The notes under the pieces were generated by a model. The model saw only the letters and a program-made list of their open reading frames with translations. It had not been told where the DNA came from and made no database searches. This document shows, one piece after another, positions 1,755-54,334 of a stretch of DNA of 64,000 bases (its first letter is position 1; every line of letters begins with the position of its first letter). The stretch is from Candidatus Nomurabacteria bacterium (GTDB lineage Bacteria > Patescibacteriota > Minisyncoccia > Phycocordibacterales > UBA9973). Both the position numbers and the translations under genes were made by a program. Location: NCBI GenBank assembly GCA_016199805.1, contig JACQGC010000005.1, positions 6,019 through 70,018 on the forward strand. Direction: 5' to 3'.

Positions 1755-2608
1755 ATTTTTTTTATAAAAAGAATAAATATTATTACAGTAAGTATTATAG
1801 CAAAGATTACATAATTTTGATACAGAGTTTGCTTGTTTTGAGGTTCTAGGGTTTCAACTTTTTCGTTCCCGTTTTTGTCGACGGCTTTCACATAAATCTT
1901 TTGACTTAAGCTTTGATTCCGAAGTAAATACGGGCTTTTTGCCTCAACAAAAAATCCAAACCGCCCTTCCCTTACTTTGTAATAATTTACACCCGAAGAT
2001 TTGTCTTGGGTGGAAAAAACAAGAAAATATTTTCCGTTAAAAATTCCAGGGTCACTTGTGATTATCGGTGTAAAATCCTCCGGCATTTCTGTGTCCGGAA
2101 AAATAAACTTTGGCTTAAAACCATCGAGAGTGCCTTTGGAGGAAACAACAATCGGCAAAGATTCATTTTTGATTGGTGTACTGGTGCCCATGCCGTCACT
2201 TAAAAGAGATTGAAGGTCCGTCCCATAAATTATGCCGTTCCCTTCTCCCGTAGCTCTTAAAACGATTGAAAATAGAGCATTACGGGCTCCAGAAAATCCT
2301 CCAGGTGTAATACCTGCAAACCTTATAACGCCAGGTTTTGAGATATCTGGCTTTTCAAGCCAAAAATTTACAACAGAATTCCCGTCTCTTACTTCTTTTA
2401 TATCCACCAAGTCAATCGGAAAATTAATACTGCCTTCTATTGCGTTTATGGATTGCCCTTGTGTATCTACCTGCATAGAAATAATGAATTCTTCTCCCAA
2501 GGTAAACTGATTTCCTTTTGAGTCAAAAGATATTTCTGAAGCATAACTAGCAACAGGAATACACAACAGAATTACAGAGAGAATAAGTGTTTTTAAAAAA
2601 ATATTCAT
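1733..2608 (-). CDS. Second cohesin-like secreted protein with a C-terminal TM anchor. It is a paralogue of the upstream gene.
   Basis: It has a signal peptide. The motif ISFDSKGNQFTLGEEFIISMQVDTQGQSINAIEGSINFP...DIKEVRDGNSV parallels the cohesin-like block of the 36..1754 protein. A C-terminal hydrophobic helix is present. Confidence 0.55.
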   Translation of the reverse strand: MNIFLKTLILSVILLCIPVASYASEISFDSKGNQFTLGEEFIISMQVDTQGQSINAIEGSINFPIDLVDIKEVRDGNSVVNFWLEKPDISKPGVIRFAGITPGGFSGARNALFSIVLRATGEGNGIIYGTDLQSLLSDGMGTSTPIKNESLPIVVSSKGTLDGFKPKFIFPDTEMPEDFTPIITSDPGIFNGKYFLVFSTQDKSSGVNYYKVREGRFGFFVEAKSPYLLRNQSLSQKIYVKAVDKNGNEKVETLEPQNKQTLYQNYVIFAIILTVIIFILFIKKIWLKYIK

Positions 2609-2612
2609 TAAA

Positions 2613-3659
2613 TTATCCGGTCCAATTAAATGCCATAATGCTAAAATCTACCAAATCAACCTTTCCATCCCCGTTGATATCGGCCGACTTAGGTGGATTC
2701 GGACGTTTATACCAATATGCGGTAATAGAAAAATCAACCAAGTTAACTTTGTTGTCATTATTTATATCCGCTTTTGATACTACCTTTTCTGTTAATTCTT
2801 TAATAACGTTCTTTGCACCAACTGTAAAGCCAACCACCTTACCAAAAGAACTGATGTCTCCGCCCAGGGCGGCTTTTGATTTTGCACTATGCTGTCCCAT
2901 TTCAAGTTGAGAAGTGTCAAAATTAATTAAATATGTTCCGTTTGCATCGGTTGTTTTTTTTACAAAAAGTTCATTCTCGGAGTTTATGCTCACAGTAACT
3001 TCCGAAGAAGGAGTGCTTTGTCCAAAAATAGCAAGATTATCTCCTTGTTTTACTTCACTTTTATCAGTGGTAATGGTTGGTGCAATAAAAATCCCGCCCA
3101 CTTTTGTGGTTACACCCTCAGTAACACTCAAAGGAAAAGTAAGGAAGGAAGACCGAATACCTTTACTGTCTTCGGAATAGACGCTAAAAATATAACTTCC
3201 GCTGGAAAGGCCGGAAATCGTAACTTGAAAATTGGCATCTGTATCGGCGACCGTCATCGCCACGACTTGCGCATCTTTTAATAGAGTCACAGTACTTTTA
3301 GGATACGCCCTTCCCGTGAACACGACATTTGTATTTGGAATTGAAGATGGAGCATTATTGTTACCTCCGCCACCACCCCCTCCGCCGCCATTATTGATGA
3401 CAGGCGGAAAAATATTACAAATAGATGTGTTGAAAGTGCAAATAGAGGTACAAGAAAGCGACCCGCTTGCAAACCCACGAGAGAGACAAGAAGAACCCCC
3501 TAAGTTTATCCCGTCGCATTGTTCCCCTGCGTCAATAACATTATTGCCGCACCCTGGAACATTAGCTGTCACGGTGATAGTAAGAGCCGAAACCTTCGTT
3601 ATTTCCTTAAGAAAGAAAACGCTAAACGCAATTATAATAATTAAAATTATTGATCTCAT
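2613..3659 (-). CDS. Secreted dockerin-containing protein with a Cys-rich module, a poly-Gly linker and a C-terminal double dockerin repeat.
   Basis: It has a signal peptide. A Cys-rich segment reads CGNNVIDAGEQCDG...SC...C. A G9 run is present. The C-terminus carries two F-hand repeats, DINNDNKVNLVDFSITAYWY and DINGDGKVDLVDFSIMAFNW, which is a canonical dockerin. Confidence 0.65.
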   Translation of the reverse strand: MRSIILIIIIAFSVFFLKEITKVSALTITVTANVPGCGNNVIDAGEQCDGINLGGSSCLSRGFASGSLSCTSICTFNTSICNIFPPVINNGGGGGGGGGNNNAPSSIPNTNVVFTGRAYPKSTVTLLKDAQVVAMTVADTDANFQVTISGLSSGSYIFSVYSEDSKGIRSSFLTFPLSVTEGVTTKVGGIFIAPTITTDKSEVKQGDNLAIFGQSTPSSEVTVSINSENELFVKKTTDANGTYLINFDTSQLEMGQHSAKSKAALGGDISSFGKVVGFTVGAKNVIKELTEKVVSKADINNDNKVNLVDFSITAYWYKRPNPPKSADINGDGKVDLVDFSIMAFNWTG

Positions 3660-3665
3660 TCATTT

Positions 3666-4652
3666 TCATTGATGTTTTTTTGTTGCACTAGATACTATAA
3701 ATTTATTATATCGCTTTACAGACATAAAGATAAGTAACAAGGCAACAACAATCAGAATCAGGAGTTGCCATGGAATAATAAAAAAATTATAACTTGCGCT
3801 CCCTGTTTGATTTGTATTTCCCCATGTCAAATTAAGAACAGCGGTATACCAACCGAAACGAAAATTTTGCAATTGCTTCCAAGCTATTGTGAAAAATCCC
3901 GCAGTATCTTCTCCGTTTTGTGGAATTAATGACTCTCCCCAAATGACATCAAATTTCCTTATGCTATTTGGCAAGACGCTTCCCTCTTTTTTGTTTGCCG
4001 AAATTTTATCGGCGGTGAGTCTGATCATATTTTTGAAACTGATTTCACCCAAGGGAACAATACGGTCTCCGCCTGTATTGTTTAGGCGGTAAAAAAACGA
4101 AACAGGCAAACTGCTAAAAAATCTCTGTCCTCCATTGGTCATAAATTCATTCAATCCTCCCCCTTCTTTTATATCACCATTCACCCGAAGTAATACCAGA
4201 GCTCCGATTCTACCCCCGATTGATACTTCCCCGCCACTTTGTGTGTTTACAGGAGTAGTGCCAAAAAATATCGCGGCAAAATATCCTCCCGGTTCGGTAT
4301 TTTTTGGTATGGTAATAGAATATGGTATCAATTTATTTTCCCCTTTGCCAATCTGAACACTGGAAATAGATTTTATCCAAGTAGCCAAACCGTCTTTGGC
4401 ACCGACGAAATATGGCGCGCCGGAATCCCCCCTAGGTTCAAAATTTTCAAAAGAAGTAAAAAAGGTTTTATTGGAAGATTCCTCGTTGATGATTTCTATT
4501 TCCCCGGATAAGGTTTGCCCCGGGTCACCACTTAATTCTATTCTCGCCGGGGCTATGGTCAAAGCTCGCGCGTAATTTGAAACACCAAATAAAACAATCA
4601 GCACAGGAATAAAAAACAAAAGTGGATATTTTAATTTTATTTGTTTCTTCAT
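3666..4652 (-). CDS. Hypothetical secreted protein with an N-terminal signal/TM and a C-terminal TM helix.
   Basis: It is a long ORF with coherent coding statistics. It shows hydrophobic N- and C-terminal segments only. Confidence 0.5.
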   Translation of the reverse strand: MKKQIKLKYPLLFFIPVLIVLFGVSNYARALTIAPARIELSGDPGQTLSGEIEIINEESSNKTFFTSFENFEPRGDSGAPYFVGAKDGLATWIKSISSVQIGKGENKLIPYSITIPKNTEPGGYFAAIFFGTTPVNTQSGGEVSIGGRIGALVLLRVNGDIKEGGGLNEFMTNGGQRFFSSLPVSFFYRLNNTGGDRIVPLGEISFKNMIRLTADKISANKKEGSVLPNSIRKFDVIWGESLIPQNGEDTAGFFTIAWKQLQNFRFGWYTAVLNLTWGNTNQTGSASYNFFIIPWQLLILIVVALLLIFMSVKRYNKFIVSSATKKHQ

Positions 4653-4657
4653 ACTTA

Positions 4658-5689
4658 TTAGAAGTTTGCGACAGCAGTATAATTAAGCGCTGTGGCATAA
4701 GATCCGGCTTTTGTTAAAGCAGCCACACTTCCGAGATAGTGAGCAGAATAGGTAGTCGTAGCAGAAGGTGCAGAAGCTGAAGCAATCTGATTTGGAGAAC
4801 CGGCAACAAAAGCAAAACCACTGGCTGAGTATGGAGCGCTAACTGTCGCCGTACCACCTGCCGCATCATATCTGACACCAAATTGTTCTGTGCCTGTGGC
4901 GTAAGCAGTATTTGTAGCTCCGATAGCAGCTATTGTATTCGCACCATCCGTCAAAGTACTTCCATTCAATAAAAGAGTATAACCGCTGGTAGCATTTGTA
5001 CCGACTGCCAAAGTATGCGCCACCGTATCAGACCCGGAACCAAGTGTGTCTGATGTTGCGTATCTGGCAACCGTCGGAGAAAGCGAACCAAAGCCGATAC
5101 TGTTACCTGAAATACTGAAAGTGATGGATTGATCCACCGTCGCGCTAACTGCTACTTGGTCGTTGGACAGGATAGTGACAGATGTACTACCTGTGTCTCC
5201 AAAAGTGCCGGCAATGTTAATTGCGTATAAAGCAGGCGAAGCCGGGTTAATCATATTGGCAGAGGTAAGAGTAAGAATTACTTTGTTTCCCGCAACAATC
5301 AAACCTGTACCGCTCGATGGTGCAGTAAGAGTGAGAACTTGCGCTGCCACCGCTGCGCCCCAAGTGTTTGCTGCGTTTGTAGCGGCAATCGTAGCCGTAC
5401 TTTCTGTACCCAAAGTAGCACCGAATGTCATAAATATCGTTGAAAATGTCTTTCCTGTAAGGTTAAAACCAGCCGGAAAAGTTACGGTGATGGTATTACC
5501 AAAAGCAGTACCTGTGGGAGTGGTAAATTTTATAATGTGACTTGCGGCCGTACTAATTTTCAACGAAGACATTGTGTCCGACTTACTGGTAAGCGAGGCG
5601 GCATTAGCAACACGTGCTCCGCTGAATGAAACAACAACCAAGGCAATCATTAAAACGAGGCTCGCAATTCTTTTTACAAATAATTTCAT
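4658..5689 (-). CDS. Secreted Ala/Thr/Ser-rich beta-repeat protein, paralogue A. Its C-terminus ends with YTAVANF.
   Basis: The signal peptide is MKLFVKRIASLVLMIALVVVSFSGARVANA. The start was moved to the internal Met at 5689. The protein is homologous to the 5830..6861 protein, sharing an ISFSIS..GFG block and a YTA.ANF C-terminus. Confidence 0.55.
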   Translation of the reverse strand: MKLFVKRIASLVLMIALVVVSFSGARVANAASLTSKSDTMSSLKISTAASHIIKFTTPTGTAFGNTITVTFPAGFNLTGKTFSTIFMTFGATLGTESTATIAATNAANTWGAAVAAQVLTLTAPSSGTGLIVAGNKVILTLTSANMINPASPALYAINIAGTFGDTGSTSVTILSNDQVAVSATVDQSITFSISGNSIGFGSLSPTVARYATSDTLGSGSDTVAHTLAVGTNATSGYTLLLNGSTLTDGANTIAAIGATNTAYATGTEQFGVRYDAAGGTATVSAPYSASGFAFVAGSPNQIASASAPSATTTYSAHYLGSVAALTKAGSYATALNYTAVANF

Positions 5690-5745
5690 ATTATTTTCAC
5701 AAGTTATTAATAATAAACTAAGTTCATACAAAACGATATACCTAT

Positions 5746-5775
5746 ATTATACACGACTATTCTAAAATATCGTAA
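5746..5775 (-). promoter_or_regulatory. Candidate sigma70-type promoter (TTACGA-N18-TATAAT) for the 4658..5689 gene.
   Basis: On the minus strand, TATAAT sits at 5746-5751 and TTACGA at 5770-5775. They are 18 nt apart and about 55 nt upstream of the start codon. Confidence 0.3.
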
Positions 5776-5829
5776 TTTCCCGGGCACAACTGTGGATAAC
5801 TGTTTTTCATAAATATTTAATATTTCCAA

Positions 5830-6861
5830 CTAAAAATTAGCGGTAGCGGTATAGGTAATCACTCCTCCATAATTGCCGGCCGAAGTCATCGCGGCTATGT
5901 TTGCAAGATAATAAGCGTTGATGGTTTCAAGAGGTGTGGGATTGCTCTTGGTCACGATAAGCTGATTGGAACCAGTGGTGAATTTCCAATTTCTATTTGC
6001 GGGAACTACGTTATGGTCATAAGAGCTTGTAATGGTGGCACCGTTGTCGGCAGAAAAAGCCAGAGCAAATTGTTTAGTACTTGGTAATCCGTCCGGGTCA
6101 TTTGTAATAGTCGCTTCGGTAAGAACTTCTGGCCCCGCAAAAGCGGTACCATTGTATGAGATAGAATAGCCTGATGTTGCATTAGTAGAAACTTGTAAGC
6201 TGTTTCCACTCGCATCTGTGCTACTACCCGAAGTATCATTGGTTGCAAAACGGGCCCCCGATGGAGTGACGACACCAAAGCCGACAGTATTAGTGGAAAT
6301 GGAAAAAGAAATGACTTGAGGTATGGTAACCGTTTGTTCACTTGAAAGGGTAAGTAAATTGCTGTTATTATCCAATGTTCCAACTACAAAAAAATAATCT
6401 CCGGCACTCAAATTTGTATAAGTATAATTTAAACTAAGGCCAACCGGAGTATAAGCATAAGGACCACCTGAAACCGTAGCGATGCCAACCTTATAACTGG
6501 CTACATTGTAGCCGAGGCCCGCTGTCGTCGGCGTCCAAGTTAAATCTACATTGGAACCATTCAATATAGCCGAGAGTGTCCCCTTTGTAACATATGGATA
6601 ATACAAAAGACCGGACCGCTCTATAAAACTGGTCGAGGATGACTGTCCTGCGCCAAACAGATTTTCACTTGAATACAATTTGAAACTGCCGGAACTTTCA
6701 TATCCACCACCACCACTTACCACCGGATCCCTGATGATAAAACTGGGACTGGTCAAATCAGAAGCATGAATAAAATACATCGGCAAAAGAACACCCAGGG
6801 TTATAGAAAATATTATTTTTAATTTTTTATTTTTTATTTGCGGCATTGTATTTTTATTCAA
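5830..6861 (-). CDS. Secreted beta-repeat protein, paralogue B. Its C-terminus ends with YTATANF.
   Basis: It has a signal/TM segment. It is homologous to the 4658..5689 product throughout the C-terminal 200 aa. Confidence 0.55.
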   Translation of the reverse strand: MNKNTMPQIKNKKLKIIFSITLGVLLPMYFIHASDLTSPSFIIRDPVVSGGGGYESSGSFKLYSSENLFGAGQSSSTSFIERSGLLYYPYVTKGTLSAILNGSNVDLTWTPTTAGLGYNVASYKVGIATVSGGPYAYTPVGLSLNYTYTNLSAGDYFFVVGTLDNNSNLLTLSSEQTVTIPQVISFSISTNTVGFGVVTPSGARFATNDTSGSSTDASGNSLQVSTNATSGYSISYNGTAFAGPEVLTEATITNDPDGLPSTKQFALAFSADNGATITSSYDHNVVPANRNWKFTTGSNQLIVTKSNPTPLETINAYYLANIAAMTSAGNYGGVITYTATANF

Positions 6862-7882
6862 TCTTTCGTGAATCTACTTCTGCATAAACCATCTCGGAAA
6901 CATGGGCGATAATTTTTGCAAGCACGTTGAAATCTTGGCCCTTAGTCATCACACATAACAAATAAGGGTTGTTTGGATAATAAATGACTCCACAATCATG
7001 CAGTTCGTTTTCATGTCCCGTGGACTTGCCGTTTGAAACAAAATCCAACTCGCGCTCACCAAACTTGCCGGCCACTTTTATACCCTGCGGAACTCCGGCT
7101 TCCAATCCTTCCTTGAAAGAAGCCCTGCCTAAAAGGGTTAGAATCTTTTCAGAATTTTCTTTGGACAAAAATGAAGCGTTGTAGAGCAAACGAAACAACG
7201 ACGAATAAGATTGAGTAGAGAGGTCCCCTTTTGTTACATCCCCCGGAACAACCAAACCTAAGTCGCGAAAAGTATCAAAAATCAAATCTTCTTTGGGGTT
7301 TATTTTATATAGTTCGTTCACCAAAAGTTCATTAGCTGCATTGTCAGAGTATTCCAAAGTCCTAGCCACCAAATCATCTATAGTGTACGACTGCCCTACT
7401 ACTAGTTTCTTCGCTGGCGCAAAATCTTGGTTGCCAGACGGAATTTCTTGCGAATACAATATCTTACGCTGTAGCAAACTATCGTCTTGGTCAGCTAAAC
7501 GCAGAACCGTCATCACGGTCGGCAATTTAATCAAGCTTGCTGAAATAAAAAGTTTGTTGGAGTTGATTCCAAAAATCGGACCATTCTCCAAATCTCTAAA
7601 ATACACGCTGGCGTCTGATAAATTGCCTTTACTACTCTCCTCGTTTAGATATGTACCGACACTGTTTTGCAGACTTAAATAAGCAACCTTTCTGATGACC
7701 GGTTTATCTTGGCAAGCCAGGCGAGGGTTAAGATAGTGATAATAATTGCTGTAACAATTGAAATTTTGATTATTAAGATAAAAAGAAATAAAATAACCGA
7801 TGACTAAACCGGTAATTAAAAAAAATGCCATTAGCCTGGAATTAGAAATATTTTTAATTTTATTCAACATTAAATTCTTCAT
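6854..7882 (-). CDS. Membrane-anchored serine hydrolase of the class A beta-lactamase / PBP-like family.
   Basis: It has an N-terminal TM. It carries an SxxK motif (SASLIK), an SDN motif (YSDNAAN) and a K(T/S)G-like motif (AGKFG). Confidence 0.5.
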   Translation of the reverse strand: MKNLMLNKIKNISNSRLMAFFLITGLVIGYFISFYLNNQNFNCYSNYYHYLNPRLACQDKPVIRKVAYLSLQNSVGTYLNEESSKGNLSDASVYFRDLENGPIFGINSNKLFISASLIKLPTVMTVLRLADQDDSLLQRKILYSQEIPSGNQDFAPAKKLVVGQSYTIDDLVARTLEYSDNAANELLVNELYKINPKEDLIFDTFRDLGLVVPGDVTKGDLSTQSYSSLFRLLYNASFLSKENSEKILTLLGRASFKEGLEAGVPQGIKVAGKFGERELDFVSNGKSTGHENELHDCGVIYYPNNPYLLCVMTKGQDFNVLAKIIAHVSEMVYAEVDSRKIE

Positions 7883-7895
7883 ATATTATCTAAAA

Positions 7896-10800
7896 TCAAA
7901 AACTGGGTGTCTCCACGGGAACGCTTGCGGGATTGTCGGCTGGAGCGGTATCGTCTGGAACACTACCAGATACAACATTATCTGGAGTTGGAGTTAACGC
8001 AGGGTCTTGGGTTGGTAGAATGGGTTCTGGGGTTGGAAGTGAAAACGGCACCAAAGATGGGCTGGAAATTTTACTGCTAAAAGTCTTGGCGCTCTTTACC
8101 GCCAAAGCAATCCAGCTGAAACTGATGTTTTGTTTTGCTGTGTCTTTCAAAGTGATAGTAAAACCTTTTTCTGATTTATTAGTTACCAGATACTGCACAT
8201 TGTCTGCAAATAAACTATTTGTCGCTTCAGTTTGAGCATTTTTAATTGACTGAATTAGGGAAGCATCAGTTTCAGTATTTAGATTTTCCAACTGTGGGTC
8301 GGCATCGAGAGTAATAGTCGTGTTCACAATGGGTTGTTCTAAATATTCTTTATCAAAAACTATATCTACGGATTGATCTCCTTTATTTATTTTTGCAAAA
8401 CCGGCCGTATCTGTCGTAAAGTATGGTCTGCCAAAAAATACAGTATCACTCATAAACATCACCGCATCCTTGCCGGAGCTGATAGTATCCACCGTCAAAC
8501 CATTGGCAAATATTTGTGGTGTAATTATTTCCATTGAGGCAGCCACTCGGTCGGTAAAAATCTCGGACAAGTTTTGCATATTGGTTTTTTGATTCCGCAC
8601 CTTAATAAGGAAATCCAAGATTCTGGACTCTACTGTTGCGGGAGTATTGGAAAGAGTTGAAGTCAAACCGTCGGAAACAACCGGAGAAAGAGCCAAGGAA
8701 TCTGTGCTACTTCCATCAGCAGTTGATGGAGACGAAAGCCCATTTTGTGCTGTAGCTGTTACAGCATCCAAATCTTCCTGCATCAACATCTCAATAGATG
8801 CTCCGCTGTAATTTGCCAAATTTACAAACACTACCAATGTTCCGCATTTTGTATTTGGCAATTGACCCAAGCCCATAGATGGACAATCTTCCAATTTATT
8901 TGTGTCCATATTTTCCAGAGCCGTGCCTATTACCCTGCCGGCCTGTGTCGCCCGCATAGCATAACCCGGAATGCTGGAAGAAGTCAGATAATCCCCTGCT
9001 TTTATCGGGCCATTTTCCGTACTGAATCTTACCGGCACACGGCCAACGAGCGCTATCGGCACAGAATCCACAGTCTTTGAACCGGCCACAAAACCTGGAG
9101 CGGTGGAAACGACTCCGACTAAAGTATTTTGATATTGTCCCGTGGAACGCAAGACCCCTTGTGAATTGTTTGGGTCTACCATCACCACTTCTCCTTTGGT
9201 CAGACTTTCGGTTGATGTATAATTTTCCGCCAAATCGGCGCCACCGGAAAAGAATCCACCGTTGGTTGACGACATGATATTTCCGTCGGATGTCACACGC
9301 AAAATACTGAGCCCATTATTTTGTAAATTCATAAGGTCCATCCCATTTGTAATCTGGTACGAATTTACAGTCGGTAAAGATATATTACGATAACTATATG
9401 TTAAACCACTAGAAGAATTATAAACACCATTTAAGTTGAGACCGAATGTAGGAAAATCACGACGGAAATTTATTTCCACTTGAGCCCATTGTTCACCTCC
9501 GGCGTTTCCGATAGACCCTCCAGGTGAGCTTATACTATTCCAAGTAGCCACACCGAGAGCGGTCTGGGTCGCAGCCACTCGCGCTTCCATACGCACAAAC
9601 TGGTCCGGAGTTTGTTGCCAATCAAGTGTAGAATTTGAAGCAAGTGCCGGCACATTCATTTCTTCAGAAAGATATTGTCCATCAGCATACCAACCAGCAT
9701 CGTAAATATTGATAGCCTTGGACCCAGATGATCCTCCGAAAAGAGTAATAAATTTTCCATCTGGCCTTTGAAAAGAAAGGGCACCGTCACCCACGCCACC
9801 ACCGAGATACTGACCAGTGGTTGGGTCTGTCACCGAATCAGCAAAAGTTGTAATAACATTGTCAGCAATAGTTCCAACTAAGAAATATGGAGAGGTGTTA
9901 TTTACTCCACCAGCTATTGTTGTTCTATAAATATTACGTGCTGTTGTTCCGGTAGGACCAATAGTAACAGCAGTAAGACTTTCTTGTCCAAGCGTTGTAA
10001 GAGTACATGACTGTGTAGCAGATGGAGCAGAAAGTGGTGATTCAACACCGCCAATAACGTAAGTATATCTCCAGAAGTGTACACCGGTATTACATAAGTT
10101 AGATCCACCAGAAGCTGGAGCAGAAGAAGTAGGAGCTGGTGGCGCAGTATTAAACATTGTAGGTCCTACAGCCACAGTACCGACAGGAGCACCAACAGCA
10201 GAAGTTGCGCCACCCCAAGGGAAATAAATCTCAGTGAGCACATCATTGTTTAGAGCCAAGTTTCCTCCAACAATTAAAAACGTACCATCAGCTCTCGGAA
10301 TAACATGAGAGCCTCTTCCTAGCATTGCAGGAAAAGTTACACCCGCTGCTTCTGTACCGTTGTAAGGATTGACTATACCTGACAGAGTACCACGAGCATT
10401 TGCTGTAGCTTCTCCTCTTATTATTATCCAATACCCGTCTTGTCTTTGAAATGCGAATCCTCCAGATCCATTAGCTCCGCCAAGAACAGCTCCAAGAAAA
10501 AATGTTTTGGTGTTTGCATTATAAGTCATAGTAGCAGTAGATACAGTTCCAACAGCAGACCCTGCTATAACTTTATACATGTTGTTCATAGAACCCTGAA
10601 GCGGTATAGCAAACCCTCCTAAATTTGTAGCTGCTGTCTGTAAAGGACCCGCTGTCATAGTATTGCGAACTGGATCATAAAGAGATGTAGAAGTAGCGCC
10701 AGCACCAGGTAAAATAGTATAAGTGCCATCAACATTAAGAATCGTAAATGCACCACCAGATGGAGCAGTACCAACTATGGATGGACCGAGAGTAAAACGT

Positions 10801-13800
10801 GAACCAGAGGGGGCATATTGATCATAAATATTTGTCACAGCTGACCCTCCACCAAGCACTACTAAATATTTACCGTTGGGACGTCTAATAGCAAAACCTC
10901 CTGCACCTACTGTAGCAGTAGGCTTATCTCCAGTGGCTGTCTGGTTTATAAATGTTGATGTTGTAGAATCATATAGCTCAGCAGATCCTCCCGCTACTCC
11001 ACCATTTACCACCAAGAATGTTTTATCGTCACGAGCAATAACAAAAGTACCATAACCAGCAAGATTATTTAGAAACTGATGATCATTACCAAATGATCCC
11101 ATATAAAATCCTAAACCTGTGGCACCTCCAACTTGAGTCGTTGGCGTAATACGACCATAAGGAAGTGTGAGTTGATTATTGATTGATTCAACACGAGCAG
11201 ATTCACCGCGAGAAAGCATCGGACCGGAAGGCGTGAGCTGCGCAAATGCCGCACCGAGCGAAACATCCGTCGCTCCGTCAACATAAGAAGTTGTAGAGTT
11301 ATCGTTTAAAGTTGTAACTAAAAATGGAGTATCGGTGACAGCAAGCGCCGCGGCTGTACGATAAATTTTTCTGGCAGTTGTACCGGACGGACCAATTGGA
11401 ATATTTGTCAGAGTAACTTTATCTGTGCCACCAGCGCAAGAGGCAGTAGCACTAGCTCCTAGTTGCGACTCTGCTCCGTTGATAATAAAAGTAACAAACC
11501 AAAAATGGGCTCCAATAGTACAAGTACCTCCGCCCGCTGACTCTGTGGCTGTGGGCGCCACAGGCACTGTCGCCGCTACTGCGGTGTAGCTATCCGGAGT
11601 GCTAAAATCAAATCCTAATTTTTTAAATACGGCAGAATTGTCAATAGAATAATCAAACAAGGTTGGCGTCGTAAAATCATAACGAAGTACTGTCGTATTG
11701 TTCCCCGTCCATGTGCCACGATCATCTGCCAGCTTTTTCGGCATAGCGCGATTGAAGTGTACGGCAACCTTCACGCAATTTGCTCCGGACACAGCACGAA
11801 TATTATCTCCAGGGTTTTGAATTTCTTGCCACGAAGCGGCGGCGAGGGGTCCCGAACAACCGGAAGAATTCACGGCAGTTTTTACAAAAAATTGCATAGC
11901 TTTAAATGCGGTATTGGTGACTCCATTTCTGGCCGCCGCATACACAGCTTCCAGCTGAGCCGTCCAACGCAAAGTAGAACCAGTGCTAATATATGAATTT
12001 GAAATATCTTCCGACGTATACCAAGTCGTAGCCGGAGTGATAGAATATGTGGCACCAAGTGATGCATCAACTGTTGCATCGGAACAAGATGTCGTGGTGT
12101 TATCAGCAATACTACAAGAACCTGAACTTATTAATTTTGGCAATCCTGTATCCCCTGCTGTTGTGCGATAAATCTTGCGCGCTGTTGTAGCCGTACCACC
12201 TGGGCCAATTGGAATACCGGAGAGTGCTACCGTTCCGTTAGCTGCCGTACATGCGACGATGTTTGATTTCTGGCTCAATTCGGATTCCACTCCATTTGTT
12301 ACAAATGTCGTGTAATAAGAATGCAGTCCAGCATCACAGCCCGCACCAGATGAAGGAGTACCAGCAACCGGTGCCACAGGAAATGGATCATACATAGGCA
12401 TATTTGTACTGAAATTATTTGTGGCTTGGCTCGCATTACCGGTGATAATCTGCCATGTTCCATCTGTGCGCATTATTGAATGAGCACCAGCACCAATCGT
12501 AGACGGAGCAGTGCCACCAGTGGAAGTATAGGTCGCAAATGAGTCCGTGTCTTGACTATAAATCCACGCATTGGCCGTAGCCCCTCCACCTAAAATTAAA
12601 AACTTTCCATTTTGAAGCGGGATAGCGTGAGCCCCATCTCCCAAGGCAACCGTCGGGCCGTTGTTGGGACGGCAAGTCATAGTATTGGCTGACGGATCAT
12701 AAACAGCCGAAGAATTTATTCTTGAAAGAATGACATATTTACCATCTTGACGTTTAAGAGCCACCGAACCAAGACTATTTATTCCGCAAGTATTTGTAGC
12801 TTGGTTTCCATCAAGACTTGGCCCAGCGGAAGTAAATGCTCCTATTGTGGCATTTCCTGAATATGGATTATAAATATTTGTATTTGAAGTAGAACCTCCA
12901 TTTACTATGAGCGCACGTCCATCGGGCATGGGAAGTACGAGTGCTCCTGCTGCCCAAACACCTGCCGAAGCAGGTGGACCAAGTCCAAAAGTATTTGCCA
13001 CAGGATCAAATATTTGTGTGGTACCTACAGAAGTAGATGCGCCAATAGTCACGAGATATTTCCCATCTGGACGTTTATATGCTACAGTACCCGCCCCAGT
13101 GATGGCAATAGTCGTTCCAGGCCCAAGAGAACTTGGAACAGTACCCATCGTATCAATGTTAGTTGTAGTAGTTGTTGCACCAGTAGCTGTTCCACAGATA
13201 AGAGTATATTTACCGTCTGGTCTTGGAAGAGCTATTGATCCTACACCAACACCAGCAGTAGTTGCAGTATTACAAATAATTGATTGTGATGCAGTCATTG
13301 CACCTGTAACCGAATCATAAAGAGTGGTTGATGTCGCCCCTCCACCATGTACTATCAAGTATCTACCATTCGGACGCGTAAGAGCCAAGGCACCTGCACC
13401 CACGGCGACTGATGTCGTGGGTTGAGATGATGTCGTTATCGTACCCGTACCAGAGTTTGCCGGAATACCATCCGCCAGCTGTAAGCGTCCGCCAGTATTT
13501 AAAAGATTTGAACCTATTGTTCCCAAAGAAAAATCCGTAGCAGCAGTACGAACGATAGAAGAATCCGAACCATTGACGGTAAGTCCCCCATTTGAACCAA
13601 CGGTGAATCTGTCGGTACCGTTTTGATTTATATCAATAGCGTTGCCGGTGCCGGTGCTGTTGATGGACAGCCCAGCTCCGGTGCCAGCATTGGAGATAGT
13701 CAGTGCGTCAACAGCCCCGGCAGAAAGTTGGTCAACCTTCAGTGCATAGTTGGCAGTGGTTCCACCCGATACCGGATTTTGAAAAATCACCGAACCATCG

Positions 13801-14687
13801 GTGGAGCTTAAGGCAATCGTCACATTACCCCCATCAGTATCATTGTTGTAAGTTGTTTGTAAATCCGAACTGCCGCCGCCTGCCCCGCAACCGGCATCAG
13901 TCGTATTACATAAAACTTTTGTCGTACCGTTTTCATTCACTTTGTATTTATTGGCGCTGGAATCATACCAGATATCTCCAGCCGCTGCGCCGGAGGTGCC
14001 CGCCACGCCAGTCTTTAAGAAATCTCCGGTAGCAATTGTGGTTCTTCCAGAAGCGGAATCTAAGGTCAAACCACCAACGCCACCAGAAGAAACAGTCACT
14101 GCGCCGACTCCAGTGTAGGACAAAGCCGAAAGAAGTCCTGGAATAGTCAAAGCTCCTGAACTAAGAACTGGAATTTGATTACCGGTAGCGGATTGAGATG
14201 GAGTAAACCCCCCCACGGTGCCGGAATTGATAGAATACCCTGAAGAAACCACTTGTGGACGCGGAGTGAGAGATTCAAATGTAACACCGACGCAAGAACT
14301 GGCCACTTGAGCTGCCACTTGCACATCTACATATATAGTATTATTACTTTGAAAATCATAATCAAGCGTGTCTCCCCCGGTTGACACATCCCCAATCCCC
14401 GCGTTAAAAACTCCTTCACGAGTGAGGATGGTCATCGTTGACGGAGCACCCGTGGGCCAAACTTTGGACCCTGCCGTTGATGCATCATATAAAGAAAACT
14501 TATAACAATAGTTTGTGCCACTCGTGCCTCCGAGCAAAGCCCCGCTGGAATTTAAAAGTCTGCCTTGAAAACTAATAATTTTGGGTACCCCTGGCGCAGC
14601 ATAGGCAAAATTTATAAAAAAAGATACGACAAAAAAGCACGTTAAAATCCGTAAAATATTTTTATGTTTAGGATTGTTTTTTCCCAT
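7896..14687 (-). CDS. Giant (2263 aa) secreted surface protein. It has many Kelch/beta-propeller-like blades and a domain repeated four times.
   Basis: It has a signal peptide. It has at least 11 blade-like repeats of the form (R/K)PDGKY...GG. An internal roughly 60-aa domain containing TARKIYRT is repeated four times. It is a single uninterrupted 6.8-kb ORF. Confidence 0.7.
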
Positions 14688-15302: not shown

Positions 15303-16352
15303 TTATTCACTAACCCACAAATAAAAATAATTTTTTATTTTTATAGAAAATTTGTAAGCATCTGTGTGTGAAAGCACTCCTAGGTATGATGCTAAGGTCG
15401 CTTTGATTTTGTCTTTGCCAACTTCCCCTCTTCGGTATGCTTCAATTTTATCTTCAAATTTTCTGATAATCCTCTTTTTCGTTCTTTTACGAATGAGAGT
15501 ATGGGTAGAAAAGATAATATTCCCCAAAAAATCTATGCCCTTGATATAACTTAATATCTCAACTTTTTCCGGATGTAAATGTAAAAATAAAGAATCTCGT
15601 AAAAATATATTTACGGAGTCTAAAATATGGAGTAAATAATCTCTATCTCTTGAAACAATCACAAAATCGTCAGTGTAGCGCGCATAATAACGAACTTTGA
15701 GTTTGTGTTTAATAAATTGGTCAAATTCATTCATATAGATATTCGCAAAAATCTGCGAGGTGAGATTGCCTATAGGCACACCCTTTCTTCCCAATAAATC
15801 TGACGCAGAACTTGTATAACTCTCGATTATGTTTTCCAGAAGCCAAATTATATTCGGATCTTTAATCTTCTTATTTAAGATTGCCAACAAAATATCGTGG
15901 TCAATTGAATCAAAAAACTTACGCACGTCACACTTGAGCACATAGCATGTCTTTGTATTGTTTCTGCTTTCTTTTCGCAACATACCTCGCAAAGTTTCGA
16001 TCCCCTTATGAGTCCCCTTGCCTATTCGGCAAGAAAACGAGTTGGAAATAAATGTTGGTTCAAATATTGGGTTGAGTATATTAAAAATTGCATGGTGGAG
16101 GACTCGGTCTCTGACGGTGGCTTTATGTATATGCCTCAATTTCGGATCTGATATATAAAATCCTTCGTACTCGCCGTGTTTATAGCTTTTGTTTTTTAAA
16201 TCTCGAGATAGTTTGAAAATATTACTCTCAAGCTCACTCTCAAACATCAATACATCTATTTTCGATCCCTTTCCGTGTTTAAATTCTTTCCACGCTAAAA
16301 ACAAAGCCTCGGGTTGAACAATCTTATTAAATAAATCTTTGTGAATAATCAT
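15303..16352 (-). CDS. Reverse transcriptase of the diversity-generating retroelement (DGR) type.
   Basis: RT motifs are present: the LFxxIxxxxAxxAWKEFKHGKGSK N-terminus, the IGNLTSQIFANIYMNEFDQF motif 4 with the DGR-specific SQ, and the YARYTDDFVI YxDD box. It is about 350 aa and has no maturase or endonuclease domain. The start was chosen at the internal Met (16352). Confidence 0.85.
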   Translation of the reverse strand: MIIHKDLFNKIVQPEALFLAWKEFKHGKGSKIDVLMFESELESNIFKLSRDLKNKSYKHGEYEGFYISDPKLRHIHKATVRDRVLHHAIFNILNPIFEPTFISNSFSCRIGKGTHKGIETLRGMLRKESRNNTKTCYVLKCDVRKFFDSIDHDILLAILNKKIKDPNIIWLLENIIESYTSSASDLLGRKGVPIGNLTSQIFANIYMNEFDQFIKHKLKVRYYARYTDDFVIVSRDRDYLLHILDSVNIFLRDSLFLHLHPEKVEILSYIKGIDFLGNIIFSTHTLIRKRTKKRIIRKFEDKIEAYRRGEVGKDKIKATLASYLGVLSHTDAYKFSIKIKNYFYLWVSE

Positions 16353-16706
16353 ATGAATCAAAATGATGTGCCAGTACTTAATAAATCGTATGAATTGTAT
16401 AAGTTGTTTCACGAATATCGCAAGGTTGTTCCAAAGCAAGACAGATTTACCATATATGAACGAAGTGAGCATGTAATGCTGGGGATTATAGAACTTCTGC
16501 TTGAAGCGAGTTACGGCGGCAAAGAAAGAAAGCTAGTCACCCTAGAAAAAGCCAGCGTCAAACTCAATGTGCTCCGATTCCTGATTCGCATAATGAAAGA
16601 AACAAAAACATTTGATATGAAAAAATACATTTCACTGGAACTACTTGTTGATGAAATCGGACGAATGATTGGAGGATGGATACGTTCGCTCAATCTCAAT
16701 AAATAG
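16353..16706 (+). CDS. avd: Avd-like accessory variability determinant, a four-helix-bundle protein of the 23S rRNA IVS protein family.
   Basis: It is about 118 aa. The helical pattern YELYKLFHEY...PKQDRFTIYERSEHVMLGIIE...LEKASVKLNVLRFLIRIMKE...ISLELLVDEIGRMIGGWIRSL is typical of the Avd/IVS family. It is divergent from the RT gene, and the two start codons are back-to-back (CAT|ATG). Confidence 0.7.
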   Translation: MNQNDVPVLNKSYELYKLFHEYRKVVPKQDRFTIYERSEHVMLGIIELLLEASYGGKERKLVTLEKASVKLNVLRFLIRIMKETKTFDMKKYISLELLVDEIGRMIGGWIRSLNLNK

Positions 16707-16710
16707 CTTC

Positions 16711-16750
16711 ACACAAAAGGTATCCAAAAAGGATACCTTTTGTGTTTTAC
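16711..16750 (+). terminator. Strong hairpin (15-bp stem, AAAAA loop) followed by TTTT. It is the likely avd terminator. It also lies in the spacer between TR and RT on the other strand.
   Basis: ACACAAAAGGTATCC-AAAAA-GGATACCTTTTGTGT is followed by TTTAC, directly after the avd stop codon. Confidence 0.55.
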
Positions 16751-16762
16751 AAAAAGAGACTT

Positions 16763-16891
16763 CGGGAGGAAGCCGGACGCCGAGCCAAAGTTGTCGTTGG
16801 CATTGTCGACCGTGTTCGTGTCAAACTTGAGCTTGCCGTCGTTCCAGTTGAGGTACGGAGCGTGATCGAAGCGAACAGAGGAATCCGGATT
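16763..16891 (-). repeat. DGR template repeat (TR).
   Basis: This 129-bp segment is near-identical to 17300..17428. The two differ at 18 positions, and all 18 are adenines in this copy (read on the minus strand). In the target frame this copy contains multiple AAC/AAT codons. Confidence 0.85.
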
Positions 16892-17186
16892 CTGCCTTTA
16901 TCCATCTATGGCACCGGAACTTGAAAGCTTTGCAAAGCAAAATGCAATCTTGCTCCTGAATTTAACTTCACAACACTTATTTTTTAAGTAAGTTTGTGTT
17001 GGGTAAAGACAAGCAGTATCTCTTCATAGTAACGCTCTTTTTGCAACCGTAGTCGCAAAAATTCTGGCTAGTTTCTTTGTGAAAAGAAAGAGTTCGGCGA
17101 TGGCAATCCATAAACTGCCATACATGAGCTTAGACTCAAGGTTAAGTATATTAAAAGTAAATTTAAAAATCAATATGAAATGAAAT

Positions 17187-17225
17187 CAGGGCTACCCACA
17201 TTGTGTTGTGGATAACCCTGATATT
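17187..17225 (-). terminator. Hairpin about 70 nt downstream of the DGR target gene stop. It has T-rich flanks on both sides. It is a candidate terminator or homing-associated structure.
   Basis: CAGGGCTACCCACATTGTGTTGTGGATAACCCTG is an imperfect palindrome. It has a T-run on the plus side and a T-rich tail on the minus side. Confidence 0.35.
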
Positions 17226-17290
17226 TTTTGCCGCGAACTCAAGAATCAAATGAAAGAGTTCAAAAAATTCAAGTATTCGAAGCGATAGAA

Positions 17291-18184
17291 TCACTTCTGC
17301 GGGAGGAAGCCGGACGCCGAGCCAAAGTAGCCGAAGGCACCGCCGACCGCGCCCGTGCCAAACTTGAGCATGCCGTCGAGCCAGTGGAGGTACGGAGCGA
17401 GACCGAAGCGAACAGAGGAAGCCGGATTATCAAACTCTTCGCCGGGCAAGTCCATGTGAAGTTGCTCCCAGCGAACGAAACGCTCCGGATGAGTGAGTAT
17501 GATAGCACCTCCAATAACGGAAGTGGCGCCGAACTCATTGCGTACGAAGACTTCGTGTGCGCGCCGAGTGGAACGTCCGCGGTGACGCATTCCGAGCTGG
17601 AGAGCCGCGACGAGGATATCGCCATTGCCCTGTTGTTCGGAGAGCGTTTCGATTGCCATTGCCGTCCGCGAATGAACGCGTAAACGGTCCATTTGACTCG
17701 CGCGGTAATTGTAGAACGAGCGCGACGCGGCAATTTTCGAGAGAACGGCGCCAGTTGCAATGGCGCGCGGAAAAGCGAACCAACCCACAAACGGCAACGC
17801 GTCTTCCGGAACGAACGACTTCAGCTCTGGTCGGATTTGTGCATACGCCAGCGCAGAGTCTGGATTGAGGTTAAAAACCTCCGCCAGGTATAAAATCTGG
17901 TCACAGATGGACTTCGGACCCTTGTACTCTGGCGGGTACGTGTAGGAGGATGCGACCTCCTCGCTTGCGTACTGGTTCGGGCTGCCGTATTTACGCACGA
18001 GATCTCGGACGAAGTCGCGAACGTCGTTCATGGCTCCCGTGCCGTTGTCGATGAACCGAACGCCACCCTCGTACGAGTCGAGATATTTTTCGACCACGAG
18101 AGGAACCTGCGCTTGAATCATTCCTGTAATATGCTCACGCTGTTCCGGCGACGCCGGGGCGGCTTCTGACAACATCGTTTTCAT
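17291..18184 (-). CDS. DGR target protein (297 aa). It has no signal peptide. The variable repeat encodes its C-terminal about 43 residues, a probable C-type-lectin / FGE-like variable fold.
   Basis: An AAGGAG RBS sits 6 nt before the ATG. The gene is GC-rich (about 58%), in contrast to the genome. The C-terminus ...NPASSVRFGLAPYLHWLDGMLKFGTGAVGGAFGYFGSASGFLPQK is encoded by the VR. The stop codon lies 7 nt past the VR. Confidence 0.75.
   Translation of the reverse strand: MKTMLSEAAPASPEQREHITGMIQAQVPLVVEKYLDSYEGGVRFIDNGTGAMNDVRDFVRDLVRKYGSPNQYASEEVASSYTYPPEYKGPKSICDQILYLAEVFNLNPDSALAYAQIRPELKSFVPEDALPFVGWFAFPRAIATGAVLSKIAASRSFYNYRASQMDRLRVHSRTAMAIETLSEQQGNGDILVAALQLGMRHRGRSTRRAHEVFVRNEFGATSVIGGAIILTHPERFVRWEQLHMDLPGEEFDNPASSVRFGLAPYLHWLDGMLKFGTGAVGGAFGYFGSASGFLPQK
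17300..17428 (-). repeat. DGR variable repeat (VR) at the 3' end of the target gene.
   Basis: It is the 129-bp cognate of the TR. All 18 mismatches correspond to A in the TR. The last 27 nt (minus sense) contain no adenine and are identical between the two copies, making this an IMH-like GC-rich end. Confidence 0.85.
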
Positions 18185-18245
18185 AGTAGTCTCCTTGACC
18201 TTTTCCCCGATTCGCCCGGGTACTGTTTTGCGGCTTATCTTTATG

Positions 18246-18295
18246 AGACGAGCTTTTTAGGGCTTATTTTTAAGCACCAAAAAGCTCGTCTCTAA
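18246..18295 (-). terminator. Perfect 14-bp inverted repeat (GAGACGAGCTTTTT...AAAAAGCTCGTCTC) between the thioredoxin-like gene and the DGR target gene. It is a probable bidirectional terminator.
   Basis: Seen directly in the sequence. The stem includes the U-tracts. Confidence 0.4.
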
Positions 18296-18387
18296 GTGAA
18301 TTCTTGTTAAAGAACCTTAAAAATACTGTTGTATAGTATAACATAAAAAACAGCCACGTGTCAATGTTTTTTGGATATTGTGGCCAA

Positions 18388-20838: not shown

Positions 20839-21630
20839 ATGGAGGAAAATAATATCGAGTTTACAAACAAAGAAACAGTGGTGGGGAGCAACAAAAACAA
20901 CGGTCCACAACAAATAGCCGGGGCCATCATTTTAGCAGGCATAATAATAGCTGGCGCGGTTTTATTGAAAAGTAATGGGACTCCTTCTACTCCAAACGGA
21001 GCGAATAACGGAGCCCCGGTAATATCCAAAATATCCCCGGTGAACCCAAGCGACAGAGTTCAAGGAAATCCCCAAGCAAAAGTTACCTTGGTTTTGTATG
21101 AGGACTTTCAATGTCCTTTCTGTGGCGCGGTGTCGGGATTGGAACCAAATAGCTTGGTAATACAGTCCTTAAAACAACGAGACCCGAGCTGGTCACCTTT
21201 TATGCTGGGTCTCAAGGACTATATCACGAACGGCAGTGTGCAGTTTGTCTATCGGGACTGGGCCTTTCTCGGAGCAGAGTCTACCCAATCAGCCGAAGCC
21301 GCAAGATGCGCCGGAGACCAGGGAAAATTCTGGGAATTTCATGATTATCTTTATGTCCACCAAAATGGAGAAAATAAAGGAGCCTTTTCCGATGTTCATC
21401 TGAAAGCTTTCGCTAAAACATTGGGACTGGACACCACGGCCTTTGGCCAATGCTTAGACAGCAACAAGTACGCGCAAGCCGTAGCGGACTCCAAAACCGA
21501 GGGAATGGTGGATGGAATCACCGGCACGCCAAAAGGATTTATTTTGGTAAAAGGCAAAATAGTATCGACAATCGATGGAGCTGAATCGTGGACAACGGTA
21601 AAACCAAAAATTGACGCTGCGCTGAAGTAA
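20839..21630 (+). CDS. DsbA-family thiol:disulfide oxidoreductase, membrane-anchored.
   Basis: A GGAGG RBS sits upstream. It has an N-terminal TM. The FQCPFCGAV CxxC active site lies in a thioredoxin fold. The DsbA-like alpha-helical insert contains ARCAGDQGKFWEFHDYLY. Confidence 0.7.
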   Translation: MEENNIEFTNKETVVGSNKNNGPQQIAGAIILAGIIIAGAVLLKSNGTPSTPNGANNGAPVISKISPVNPSDRVQGNPQAKVTLVLYEDFQCPFCGAVSGLEPNSLVIQSLKQRDPSWSPFMLGLKDYITNGSVQFVYRDWAFLGAESTQSAEAARCAGDQGKFWEFHDYLYVHQNGENKGAFSDVHLKAFAKTLGLDTTAFGQCLDSNKYAQAVADSKTEGMVDGITGTPKGFILVKGKIVSTIDGAESWTTVKPKIDAALK

Positions 21631-34758: not shown

Positions 34759-35067
34759 TTATTTCTTTGCTTTCAACTCTTTTCTCTTCATTGTCGGCTT
34801 TTTCTTCGGCAATACGTTTATTTTCTTGCCTTCAATTATTTTATCGTGCACTAAAAAGTTGTGCATAGTGTCCGAACATTGCGCGCCCTGGCTCATCCAA
34901 TATTTTATCCTGTCGGCGAGTAAATTTTTCTCTCCGGCCTTGGGATTGTAGGTACCCAATATTTCTAAAAATCTTCCGCTCTTGGTGCTATTCTTGGAAT
35001 CGGTCAAAACCGCCCGAAATGACGGGTCGTTCTTTCTGCCTATTCTCTGAAGTCTTATTTTTAACAT
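34759..35067 (-). CDS. rpsP: 30S ribosomal protein S16.
   Basis: The MLKIRLQRIGRKNDPSFRAVLTDS N-terminus is canonical for S16. Confidence 0.92.
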   Translation of the reverse strand: MLKIRLQRIGRKNDPSFRAVLTDSKNSTKSGRFLEILGTYNPKAGEKNLLADRIKYWMSQGAQCSDTMHNFLVHDKIIEGKKINVLPKKKPTMKRKELKAKK

Positions 35068-35239: not shown

Positions 35240-35593
35240 TCAGATTTTCCCCTCTTTCTCCACCCGCCGAATCACGACGATCGGCGGCTTCTTGAAATTC
35301 TCCCAGAACTTCGTCCTCTCTTCGTCGCACTGCTTGGTGAGACGCTCAAGACGCTTCTCACTAAGACCGAGGACATTGTCTTTCACCCAACAGGAGGAAA
35401 TCGGCACAACTGCCGACTCGGCAATCACCTGTACCGGTGCCGTCTGCGCCTTGGCCCGCGGCAACAGCCACATAGACAGCGCAACGAAAAATGCAATAGC
35501 TAGCAACGGAGCCCAAATCGCCCTAACTACTGCCATGAACCGAGCTACACCAAACAGTTGCATTGAAGCATTTACGACACTCTTTTGTGACAC
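35240..35593 (-). CDS. Hypothetical small membrane protein encoded by a GC-rich (about 55%) segment.
   Basis: The ORF has a TM helix. Its composition departs clearly from the neighbouring rpsP and rnr genes. Confidence 0.4.
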   Translation of the reverse strand: MSQKSVVNASMQLFGVARFMAVVRAIWAPLLAIAFFVALSMWLLPRAKAQTAPVQVIAESAVVPISSCWVKDNVLGLSEKRLERLTKQCDEERTKFWENFKKPPIVVIRRVEKEGKI

Positions 35594-38670: not shown

Positions 38671-38997
38671 TTACGACACATTGCTATGGGCAGCCGCGAG
38701 ACCTGGCTCTCCTTCTGAGTAGGACAATCCGTACGTCCCGACCCACACTGCTTCCGCGCCTCCTTTCTCGACAGCTTCCACCGCTCCATCCAACAACATT
38801 GCCGGGAAGTGCCGGGAAATATCTTCCCTTTTAATCACCTCCCACTCGTCGTCGTACTCATGCAGCTCACCACCAGGAGTTTTGAATGAAAACCCCCCAT
38901 TGGTTACGCTAAGGACCGCCTGCAAGTTGACACCCGCGAAGCAGTCCGCTTTGCCCCGCTCCGCGGGGTCTTCAAAAAATAACAGAACAAAAGTCAT
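38671..38997 (-). CDS. Hypothetical protein on a GC-rich (about 55-60%) island.
   Basis: It is a 108-aa ORF. The composition of 38640-38990 is sharply different from the flanks. No motif was recognised. Confidence 0.35.
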   Translation of the reverse strand: MTFVLLFFEDPAERGKADCFAGVNLQAVLSVTNGGFSFKTPGGELHEYDDEWEVIKREDISRHFPAMLLDGAVEAVEKGGAEAVWVGTYGLSYSEGEPGLAAAHSNVS

Positions 38998-54279: not shown

Positions 54280-54334
54280 GAAATTTTTTGTTTTATTCTC
54301 TAATAAATCCGACTGTATTAGTATAACATGGTTG

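Follow-up and report, generated by a model that had tools for sequence, protein, structure and literature searches.

The question raised by this locus is why a single gene, a minus-strand ORF of 297 aa (17291-18184), is GC-rich among AT-rich neighbours and, in particular, whether it came from a foreign source or is held at an unusual composition, the two possibilities offered by the first-pass annotation. In the window (i.e., the whole 64-kb stretch of DNA analysed here, which is 42.0% GC), the ORF reaches 57.4% GC, with 62, 45 and 65% at the first, second and third codon positions (GC1, GC2 and GC3), respectively. No 894-nt segment of the 64 kb is richer; such segments average 42.1% (sd 4.1), which the ORF exceeds by ~3.7 sd. 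The part of the gene outside the variable repeat (VR) is 56.1% GC, the VR itself 65.9% and the template repeat (TR) 56.1%, close to the ~58% initially given for target and TR. A 300-nt GC profile rises at ~17250 and falls at ~18200, i.e., at the ends of the CDS. The reverse transcriptase (RT) gene is 33.8% GC (GC3 35%), the accessory gene avd 36.9% and the 399-nt spacer between VR and TR 35.8%; that is, RT and avd are AT-rich as first described, but the remaining neighbours spread more widely (38-47%) than the 35-42% initially reported, with the gene for a 2263-aa surface protein, the sigma factor gene and the ORF at 20839-21630 at 45-46.5%. The GC-type codons noted at the outset were also recovered: CGC, CTC, GAG and NCG are over-represented, GAG exceeds GAA, AGA is absent altogether, ACC is not used whereas ACG is, and the R/K balance is inverted (0.079/0.028 vs. 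0.037/0.080). This codon use is alien even to the RNA polymerase (RNAP) and ribosomal-protein genes of the host.

The ORF is the variable-protein (target) gene of a complete CPR-type diversity-generating retroelement (DGR), with its parts in the order target, ~400-nt spacer, TR, avd on the opposite strand, and RT. The RT is encoded at 15303-16352 on the minus strand (349 aa from an internal ATG; the mechanically called ORF extends to 16472) and matches Pfam RVT_1 (E=1.6e-26), while its best NCBIfam match is a group II intron RT-like model (E=6.9e-47, under that model's cut-off). Reading of the sequence gives IGNLTSQ and YTDD motifs, and relatives of this RT adjoin A-biased TR/VR pairs in at least 33 loci. 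The avd gene (16341-16706, plus strand) is divergent from the RT, the 5' ends of the two overlapping, and its product scores 63.5 bits against Pfam bAvd (PF22296, cut-off 40) and 77.2 bits, just below the cut-off of 80, against NCBIfam DivGenRetAVD (NF033474). The TR (16760-16891, minus strand) is a 132-nt direct repeat of the VR (17297-17428, minus strand) at 86% identity, and all 19 mismatches fall at TR adenines, which number 30, of which 12 occupy first and 18 second codon positions, third positions having none. The VR, the only one in the window, encodes residues ~253-296, with variable residues 255-286 and 296, and its 27-nt GC-rich, IMH-like 3' segment shows no TR/VR differences, the two sequences diverging thereafter. 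The same architecture, with A-only mismatches, was found in at least 27 homologous loci.

Several candidate signals accompany these parts. Between the avd stop codon and the 3' end of the TR there is a hairpin, CACAAAAGGTATCC-aaaaa-GGATACCTTTTGTG (16712-16744, no strand assigned), identified by eye in the letters, and a small terminator-like hairpin (16774-16758) sits at the TR 3' end. The AT-rich VR-TR spacer (16892-17290, minus strand) comprises an 8-bp hairpin that spans the target stop codon (17297-17279) and is not kept in all family loci, a terminator-like hairpin of 16 bp (17222-17185) and, at 17173-17145, a promoter-like site (a consensus match only) that could drive a separate TR transcript. 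The segment 17300-17080 has a fold z of -7.1, and the trailer hairpin and CTTGA repeats are kept in other loci. Upstream of the target (18185-18364, minus strand), a consensus scan placed a promoter-like site at 18364-18335 (TTGACA-18-TATACT, likewise a consensus match only) ahead of a structured leader with a 22-bp hairpin (18292-18245), a small GC hairpin and a GGAG RBS; this two-hairpin layout recurs in other family members, and nucleotide homology with the two closest cassettes, L081 and L083, begins at 18323 and 18350, respectively. A further promoter-like site, again at the level of consensus only, precedes the RT (16423-16394). No known RNA family was found in the cassette within the window, no integrase or tRNA adjoins the cassette (the sole tRNA of the window is at 54334), and no repeats flanking it were found. 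By the established DGR mechanism, RT and Avd would copy TR RNA into cDNA with errors opposite adenines, and this cDNA would replace the VR, recoding ~16 residues within the last 45 aa of a small, probably soluble protein; the recoded residues would lie on the C-terminal beta-strands of a putative, distant C-type-lectin-like (CLec-like) domain.

The target protein has no Pfam match at E<=0.1, no NCBIfam or PHROG family and no relative in sequence or profile searches of the PDB, and neither FGE-sulfatase (PF03781), DUF1566 nor other described VR domains match it; the early remark that its N-terminal part resembles nothing recognisable thus holds for Pfam, NCBIfam, PHROGs and PDB sequences. More than 732 homologues exist, each of ~300 aa and, where named, all from Parcubacteria/Patescibacteria, and the protein represents a new, large, unannotated DGR target family. 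The JGI name 'ribosomal protein S16' carried by some members is backed by no model. An AF2 model based on 54 homologues (pLDDT 93.4, pTM 0.85) places three N-terminal helices (residues 13-67) before a mixed alpha/beta domain, with the variable residues on the final strands (262-269, 272-279 and 287-293); the two tail peptides quoted in the first-pass annotation are located at residues 264-271 and 284-293. Foldseek comparison of the model with the PDB and BFVD gave no significant match, and a distant CLec-like scaffold for the VR is plausible on the model. Kyte-Doolittle means of 8-aa segments peak at 1.24 within the first 35 residues, compared to at least 3.0 in three neighbouring genes with obvious N-terminal hydrophobic segments, and the best 19-aa hydropathy window anywhere in the protein is 1.37. 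A classical signal peptide or transmembrane (TM) segment is, therefore, unlikely as judged by hydropathy, in agreement with the earlier claim that the target lacks both. Across homologous loci, no conserved partner gene other than RT and avd was found; a DsbA-like ORF is present in 10 of the loci.

The composition of the target is not peculiar to this genome. We assembled 80 loci from 80 CPR species, each encoding a relative of the target, and took host GC from the flanking ORFs within ±10 kb, called mechanically. The target was GC-richer than the rest of the locus in all 80 (58.6 ± 5.7% vs. 43.2 ± 6.5%, a mean difference of +15.4 points). With reading frames taken from the protein match and the VR left out, GC3 was 0.70 vs. 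0.45 in neighbouring ORFs and higher in 73 of 77 copies, and the GC3 excess was equal with or without a TR within 10 kb; among 1000 other ORFs of the same loci, used as a control, GC3 deviations had an sd of 0.074 and reached +0.20 or more in 1.3%. The excess amounts to +24 points at GC3, +12 at GC1 and +4 at GC2, being largest at third positions, which rules out amino-acid composition alone as its source. GC3 is flat along the family genes (deciles 2-9), and beyond their ends composition has dropped to that of the host by 100 nt. The anomaly is kept family-wide in hosts of 29-58% GC, and target GC3 follows that of the host only partly (logit slope 0.55), unlike RT GC3, which correlates with the host value (r=0.76) at a mean difference of -0.01. 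The same split is seen in the closest cassettes, L081 and L083, which are collinear with the window over target-TR-avd-RT and encode targets 74-83% identical to its own; their targets are at 59-60% GC and their RTs at 37%. Hence, the GC island is a standing property of the family, confined to the CDS and strongest at synonymous sites, while RT and avd carry host composition. An assembly or binning artefact was also considered and rejected, since more than 160 independent assemblies, complete chromosomes among them (OZ244961.1, OZ246408.1 and OY970175.1), carry island and flanks on a single contig.

The targets of this family also have a history of their own. Across 25 cassettes, RT and target protein distances were uncorrelated (r=0.06; 655 of 2000 Mantel permutations did as well), and nearest neighbours on RT and on target agreed in only 6 of the 25. 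For example, L008 and L011 share 93% identity in their targets and 57% in their RTs; the nucleotide block that the two have in common (89% over 853 nt) starts at -10 relative to the start codon and extends as far as the VR, and their cassettes have opposite layouts. Conversely, L011 shares RT-avd-TR-leader with L075 at 80% nucleotide identity over 2 kb, and this similarity ends 13 nt before the target ATG. In 16 close pairs (82-91% nucleotide identity), the common part consists of the CDS plus a leader of at most 100-180 nt and a trailer of ~125 nt, the rest of the 20-kb contexts being unrelated. Pairs at 85-92% nucleotide identity, some of them from genomes assigned to different candidate phyla, lose their homology within tens of nt of the CDS. 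The hosts of the exchanged modules span 33-54% genomic GC and bear labels such as Vogelbacteria and Uhrbacteria, two separate candidate phyla in the NCBI ranking. Together, these comparisons show that the target CDS, accompanied by short stretches of leader and trailer, passes from one CPR lineage or DGR cassette to another independently of the RT. Orphan copies compared with the TRs of other genomes differ almost only at adenines (e.g., at 22 of 30 A vs. 3 of 101 non-A positions), which indicates that orphan copies are DGR-diversified too. The VRs of related copies likewise differ from foreign TRs almost only at adenines.

The excess is not restricted to one protein family either. Among 80 RT-centred metagenome loci we identified 41 A-biased TR/VR pairs, of which 26 have targets without BLAST or HMM similarity to the window family; these fall into at least 8 sequence clusters. 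Non-VR GC3 exceeded RT GC3 in 24 of these 26 unrelated targets (mean +0.24), and a frame-independent comparison gave the same picture, the 600 nt upstream of the VR being GC-richer than the RT in 24 of 25 cases (mean +14.5 points, Wilcoxon p=2e-7). The clear exceptions, with GC3 host-like up to the VR, are L142 (649 aa), its relative L138, and L143 (958 aa). GC-richness thus goes with small, compact targets, and since L142 and L143 are host-like outside the VR, being a DGR target is not sufficient for it. Further, because the excess recurs both across the family and in the majority of the small targets that related DGRs carry, it is better viewed as a standing property than as the trace of one import, and the compositional constraint that had been proposed as an alternative to horizontal origin is the better fit to the family-wide and cross-family pattern.

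The direction of substitution at third positions was assessed with Fitch counts on NJ trees, which replaced singleton-based counts discarded because of ascertainment bias. In figures that are indicative only, because parsimony inflates the S>W count where sequence is GC-rich and because recombination can mimic substitution, the per-site W>S rate was 2.6-5 times the S>W rate within two clusters of the family (A and B), including on branches leading to low-GC hosts, for an implied equilibrium GC3 of 0.72 and 0.84, respectively, while the small clade of the window copy showed 60 S>W vs. 20 W>S changes and its terminal branch 27 vs. 5. That is, the window copy shows a net GC-to-AT drift and, by this measure, appears to be relaxing towards host composition.

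We favour a reading that joins these observations, namely that the ORF is a CPR DGR target belonging to a family-wide GC island, that its family is exchanged independently of the RT, and that a GC-favouring fixation bias acts on the exchanged unit, and we assign it a probability of roughly 0.6 as a whole. The bias would keep the GC content of the module high, while individual copies, such as the window's, would relax towards host composition; it might stem from biased gene conversion as alleles are frequently replaced, or from selection acting on base composition. The effects of biased gene conversion reported in bacteria are much below +25 GC3 points. A gradient of GC decaying from the VR, as conversion linked to homing might leave, was considered and discarded given the flat GC3 profile over deciles 2-9. 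It is tempting to go further and to regard the small CPR DGR targets as a compositional compartment, made of transcription-unit-sized modules whose composition is set by exchange-driven GC-biased conversion or by selection rather than by host mutation bias, i.e., as a mobile layer of 'target cassettes' apart from RT, avd and TR; we put this broader proposal forward tentatively and regard it as doubtful in its full form.

Alternatively, a GC-rich CPR lineage, mobile element or virus outside our sample might keep re-seeding AT-rich genomes with copies that then decay and vanish. The frequent transfer documented above agrees with such a source, as do the partial dependence of target GC3 on the host, the apparent amelioration of the window copy, and the unrelated contexts in which the DGR is the sole conserved partner. 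Yet in none of ~160 loci do the flanks attain the GC3 of clusters A and B (0.74-0.91), W>S changes prevail within these clusters even in low-GC hosts, and the pattern spans several non-homologous target families, and we consider continual re-seeding unlikely. A phage reservoir, specifically, was rejected: relatives occur on only 4 of 2.9 million viral contigs, where the gene is again richer than its flanks, and there is no PHROG match.

A second alternative holds that selection at the nucleotide level is tied to DGR function, e.g., to the stability of the duplex or hybrid at the homing site or to the avoidance of AT-rich signals in the target transcript. It would account for an excess that is limited to the CDS and common to non-homologous small targets of related DGRs, and the flanks of TR and VR are known to be GC-rich (Wu 2018, PMC5758913). 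On the other hand, L142 and L143 stay host-like up to the VR, and no known mechanism engages the 750 nt upstream of it. Selection for structure in the target mRNA was tried as a variant and dropped, the CDS folding about as its composition-matched shuffles do (z=-0.5). In our assessment, selection linked to DGR function is, on balance, improbable as the main cause.

More improbable still is a one-off, recent acquisition of the target and TR module from a GC-rich donor, with amelioration yet to catch up. Codon and amino-acid use alien to the host, the 27 to 5 ratio on the terminal branch of the window copy (the direction that amelioration predicts) and the horizontal mobility of the family's targets would all fit it. 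However, finding the contrast in every one of the 80 homologous loci largely refutes a single import, the collinear L081 and L083 carry the same split between target and RT, the spacer that travels with the target is at 36% GC, and no sampled host has the GC3 of the richest clusters (0.83-0.91). Accordingly, the horizontal origin suggested in the first-pass annotation survives in part: the family's targets do travel separately from RT and avd, but the composition does not stem from one acquisition by this genome, given its recurrence throughout the family, including the two closest cassettes, and the failure to find a GC-rich donor.

Translational selection, whereby very high expression of the target would make its GC3 reflect optimal codons, has very little to recommend it. 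The RNAP and ribosomal-protein genes of the window do stand above other genes in GC3 (0.48-0.55), and the S20, ClpP and CSD genes of L081 are at 0.47-0.57. Their shift in the window, however, is from T to C at third positions only and favours AGA, GAA and ACC, whereas the target additionally has G in place of A (GAG over GAA), lacks both AGA, the favourite Arg codon of the RNAP and ribosomal-protein genes, and ACC, for which it has ACG, and inverts R/K. Finally, that collateral DGR mutagenesis, by long cDNAs or retro-copies of whole transcripts, has depleted adenines gene-wide is scarcely credible, for although the homology units approximate transcription units in size (promoter/leader to terminator), A and T are depleted about equally, change rates outside the VR are alike for all bases (A 0.044, C 0.048, G 0.043 and T 0.040, against 0.18 for A within the VR), and the VR-TR spacer is AT-rich.

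The sharp, conserved split in composition between target and RT/avd recurs in 80 species and in several unrelated target families. If it reflects frequent exchange of target modules, the reconstruction of CPR DGRs changes, since RT trees would miss the history of the targets; composition would serve as a simple flag by which to spot DGR targets that are orphan or trans-acting when the CPR genome is AT-rich; and the family would offer a natural setting in which to test GC-biased fixation in bacteria whose repair systems are minimal. The absent export signal, for its part, represents another case of intracellular or unconventionally exported DGR targets in episymbiotic bacteria.

A catalogue of CPR DGRs was reportedly compiled by Paul et al. 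in 2017. These elements correspond to the 'CPR set', mostly of architecture B3, of Wu 2018 (PMC5758913) and to clade 2 of Roux 2021 (PMC8144416), where CPR targets are described as typically without TM or other recognisable domains. In Wu 2018 (PMC5758913), GC was compared only between the whole DGR and its host, and low resolution was given as the reason why the VR classes of CPR cluster poorly on the RT tree; a paper in IJMS (2023) dealt with the codon bias of DGR neighbourhoods vs. distant regions. We found no account, in the searchable DGR literature, of a GC-rich target CDS inside a host-like cassette or of decoupled target and RT histories. The lack of an export signal was already known for CPR targets, while the split in GC within the cassette is undescribed in the searchable literature.

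Comparison with known systems places the locus as follows. GC-biased gene conversion in bacteria is reportedly the subject of Lassalle et al. (2015), and genes subject to it, like atypical genomic islands, are said to share with our locus an atypical GC content and codon use in an exchanged segment and a higher GC3 in a gene that recombines often. In contrast to atypical islands, the anomaly here is limited to one CDS and comes without integrase, tRNA or flanking repeats, and the excess is far above reported conversion effects. The CLec proteins of other DGRs (Mtd of a Bordetella phage, 1yu0, and TvpA of Treponema, 2y3c) show no sequence similarity to the window target, which has three additional helices near its N-terminus (residues 13-67) and is not a phage fibre or a lipoprotein. 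The intracellular DGR targets of multicellular bacteria, putative antigen sensors, provide a precedent for diversified proteins without export signals (PMC10907252); they are reportedly large conflict-system proteins, as opposed to a window target of 297 aa with no NTPase or effector domain. The closest match is with the CPR DGRs themselves, which share with the window the combination of RT, Avd, TR and C-terminal VR, adenine-specific differences, a CPR host, a target without domain, TM or signal peptide, and Avd on the other strand of a compact cassette. The element is thus a standard DGR in the compact CPR layout, and its mechanism is no different from that of other CPR DGRs.

The target gene of the DGR is flanked on its 5' side by a leader with two hairpins (window 18185-18364), the first of them long and the second a short GC hairpin that lies about 20 nt upstream of the ribosome-binding site, and a near-consensus promoter-like site lies upstream of this leader. 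Two-hairpin leaders were also found in other fetched loci, namely L011 (at 9761), L015 (9760), L030 (2333), L035 (9760), L067 (4477), L075 (9779), and L084 (2512); the window's leader shares their layout but differs from them in sequence. Among the loci other than the window, the short hairpin carries compensatory changes (GCCGGAGCGACTCCGGC / GCCAGAGCGACTCTGGC / GTCCCGCACGTTGCGGGAC). The two-hairpin leader may act as a cis-regulatory RNA.

A conserved trailer is found on the 3' side of the gene (window 17080-17290), and its first ~130 nt past the stop codon are conserved in loci L003, L015, L016, L030, L032, L035, L040, L066, L067, and L075, which encode relatives of the target. The trailer contains several CTTGA motifs spaced by about 10 nt, followed by a strong hairpin (loop CCACAACA) and a T-run, with the hairpin and T-run located at 17222-17185 in the window, and it is also kept in target copies that have no DGR within 10 kb. 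About 180 nt 3' of the target gene, two loci, L067 (5639-5762) and L075 (10936-11060), both with the inverted cassette layout, matched the Rfam LOOT RNA (RF03000) with 78-80 bits; this RNA had no match in the window.

The inverted layout, i.e., the RT-avd-TR block inverted relative to the target (L011, L024, L067, and L075), is one of two kinds of cassette variants among the target-family loci, the other being a single DGR that serves two tandem target genes (L004, L029, L033, L036, L044, and L077). In the window, avd and the RT gene are divergent and their 5' ends overlap (16341-16352); therefore, the avd promoter must lie inside the RT coding sequence and the RT promoter inside that of avd. 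A promoter-like site for the RT gene is present at 16423-16394.

Long alternative-frame and antisense ORFs run across the target gene (window 17269-17790 and 17228-17683), and antisense ORFs over the gene were seen in 16 loci, with a median of 331 aa (e.g., L078, 7124-8119). These ORFs are most likely a by-product of the few stop codons in GC-rich sequence. The window's next most GC-rich spots are two short stretches of 53-54% GC (35240-35593 and 38671-38997), which hold weak ORFs only (GC3 0.60-0.62) and gave no Rfam match at E<=0.1. Some target-family members (P0044, P0086, and P0095) carry the JGI name "ribosomal protein S16", an identity that finds no support in any Pfam or NCBIfam model; the genuine S16 gene of the window is at 34759-35067.

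Exceptions to the rule that targets of related CPR DGRs are GC-rich are the large targets of L142 (649 aa) and L143 (958 aa), as well as that of L138, a 224-aa relative of the L142 target. Their GC3 is host-like (0.2-0.3) over the length of the gene, with the rise confined to the VR.

Directly downstream of the DGR, eight genes are encoded on one strand (window 36-14687), all eight with hydrophobic N-termini, and the last of them encodes a 2263-aa, repeat-rich, surface-type protein. Together with the Type IV pilin-like genes at 58-61 kb, this gene run fits the cell surface of an episymbiotic CPR bacterium.
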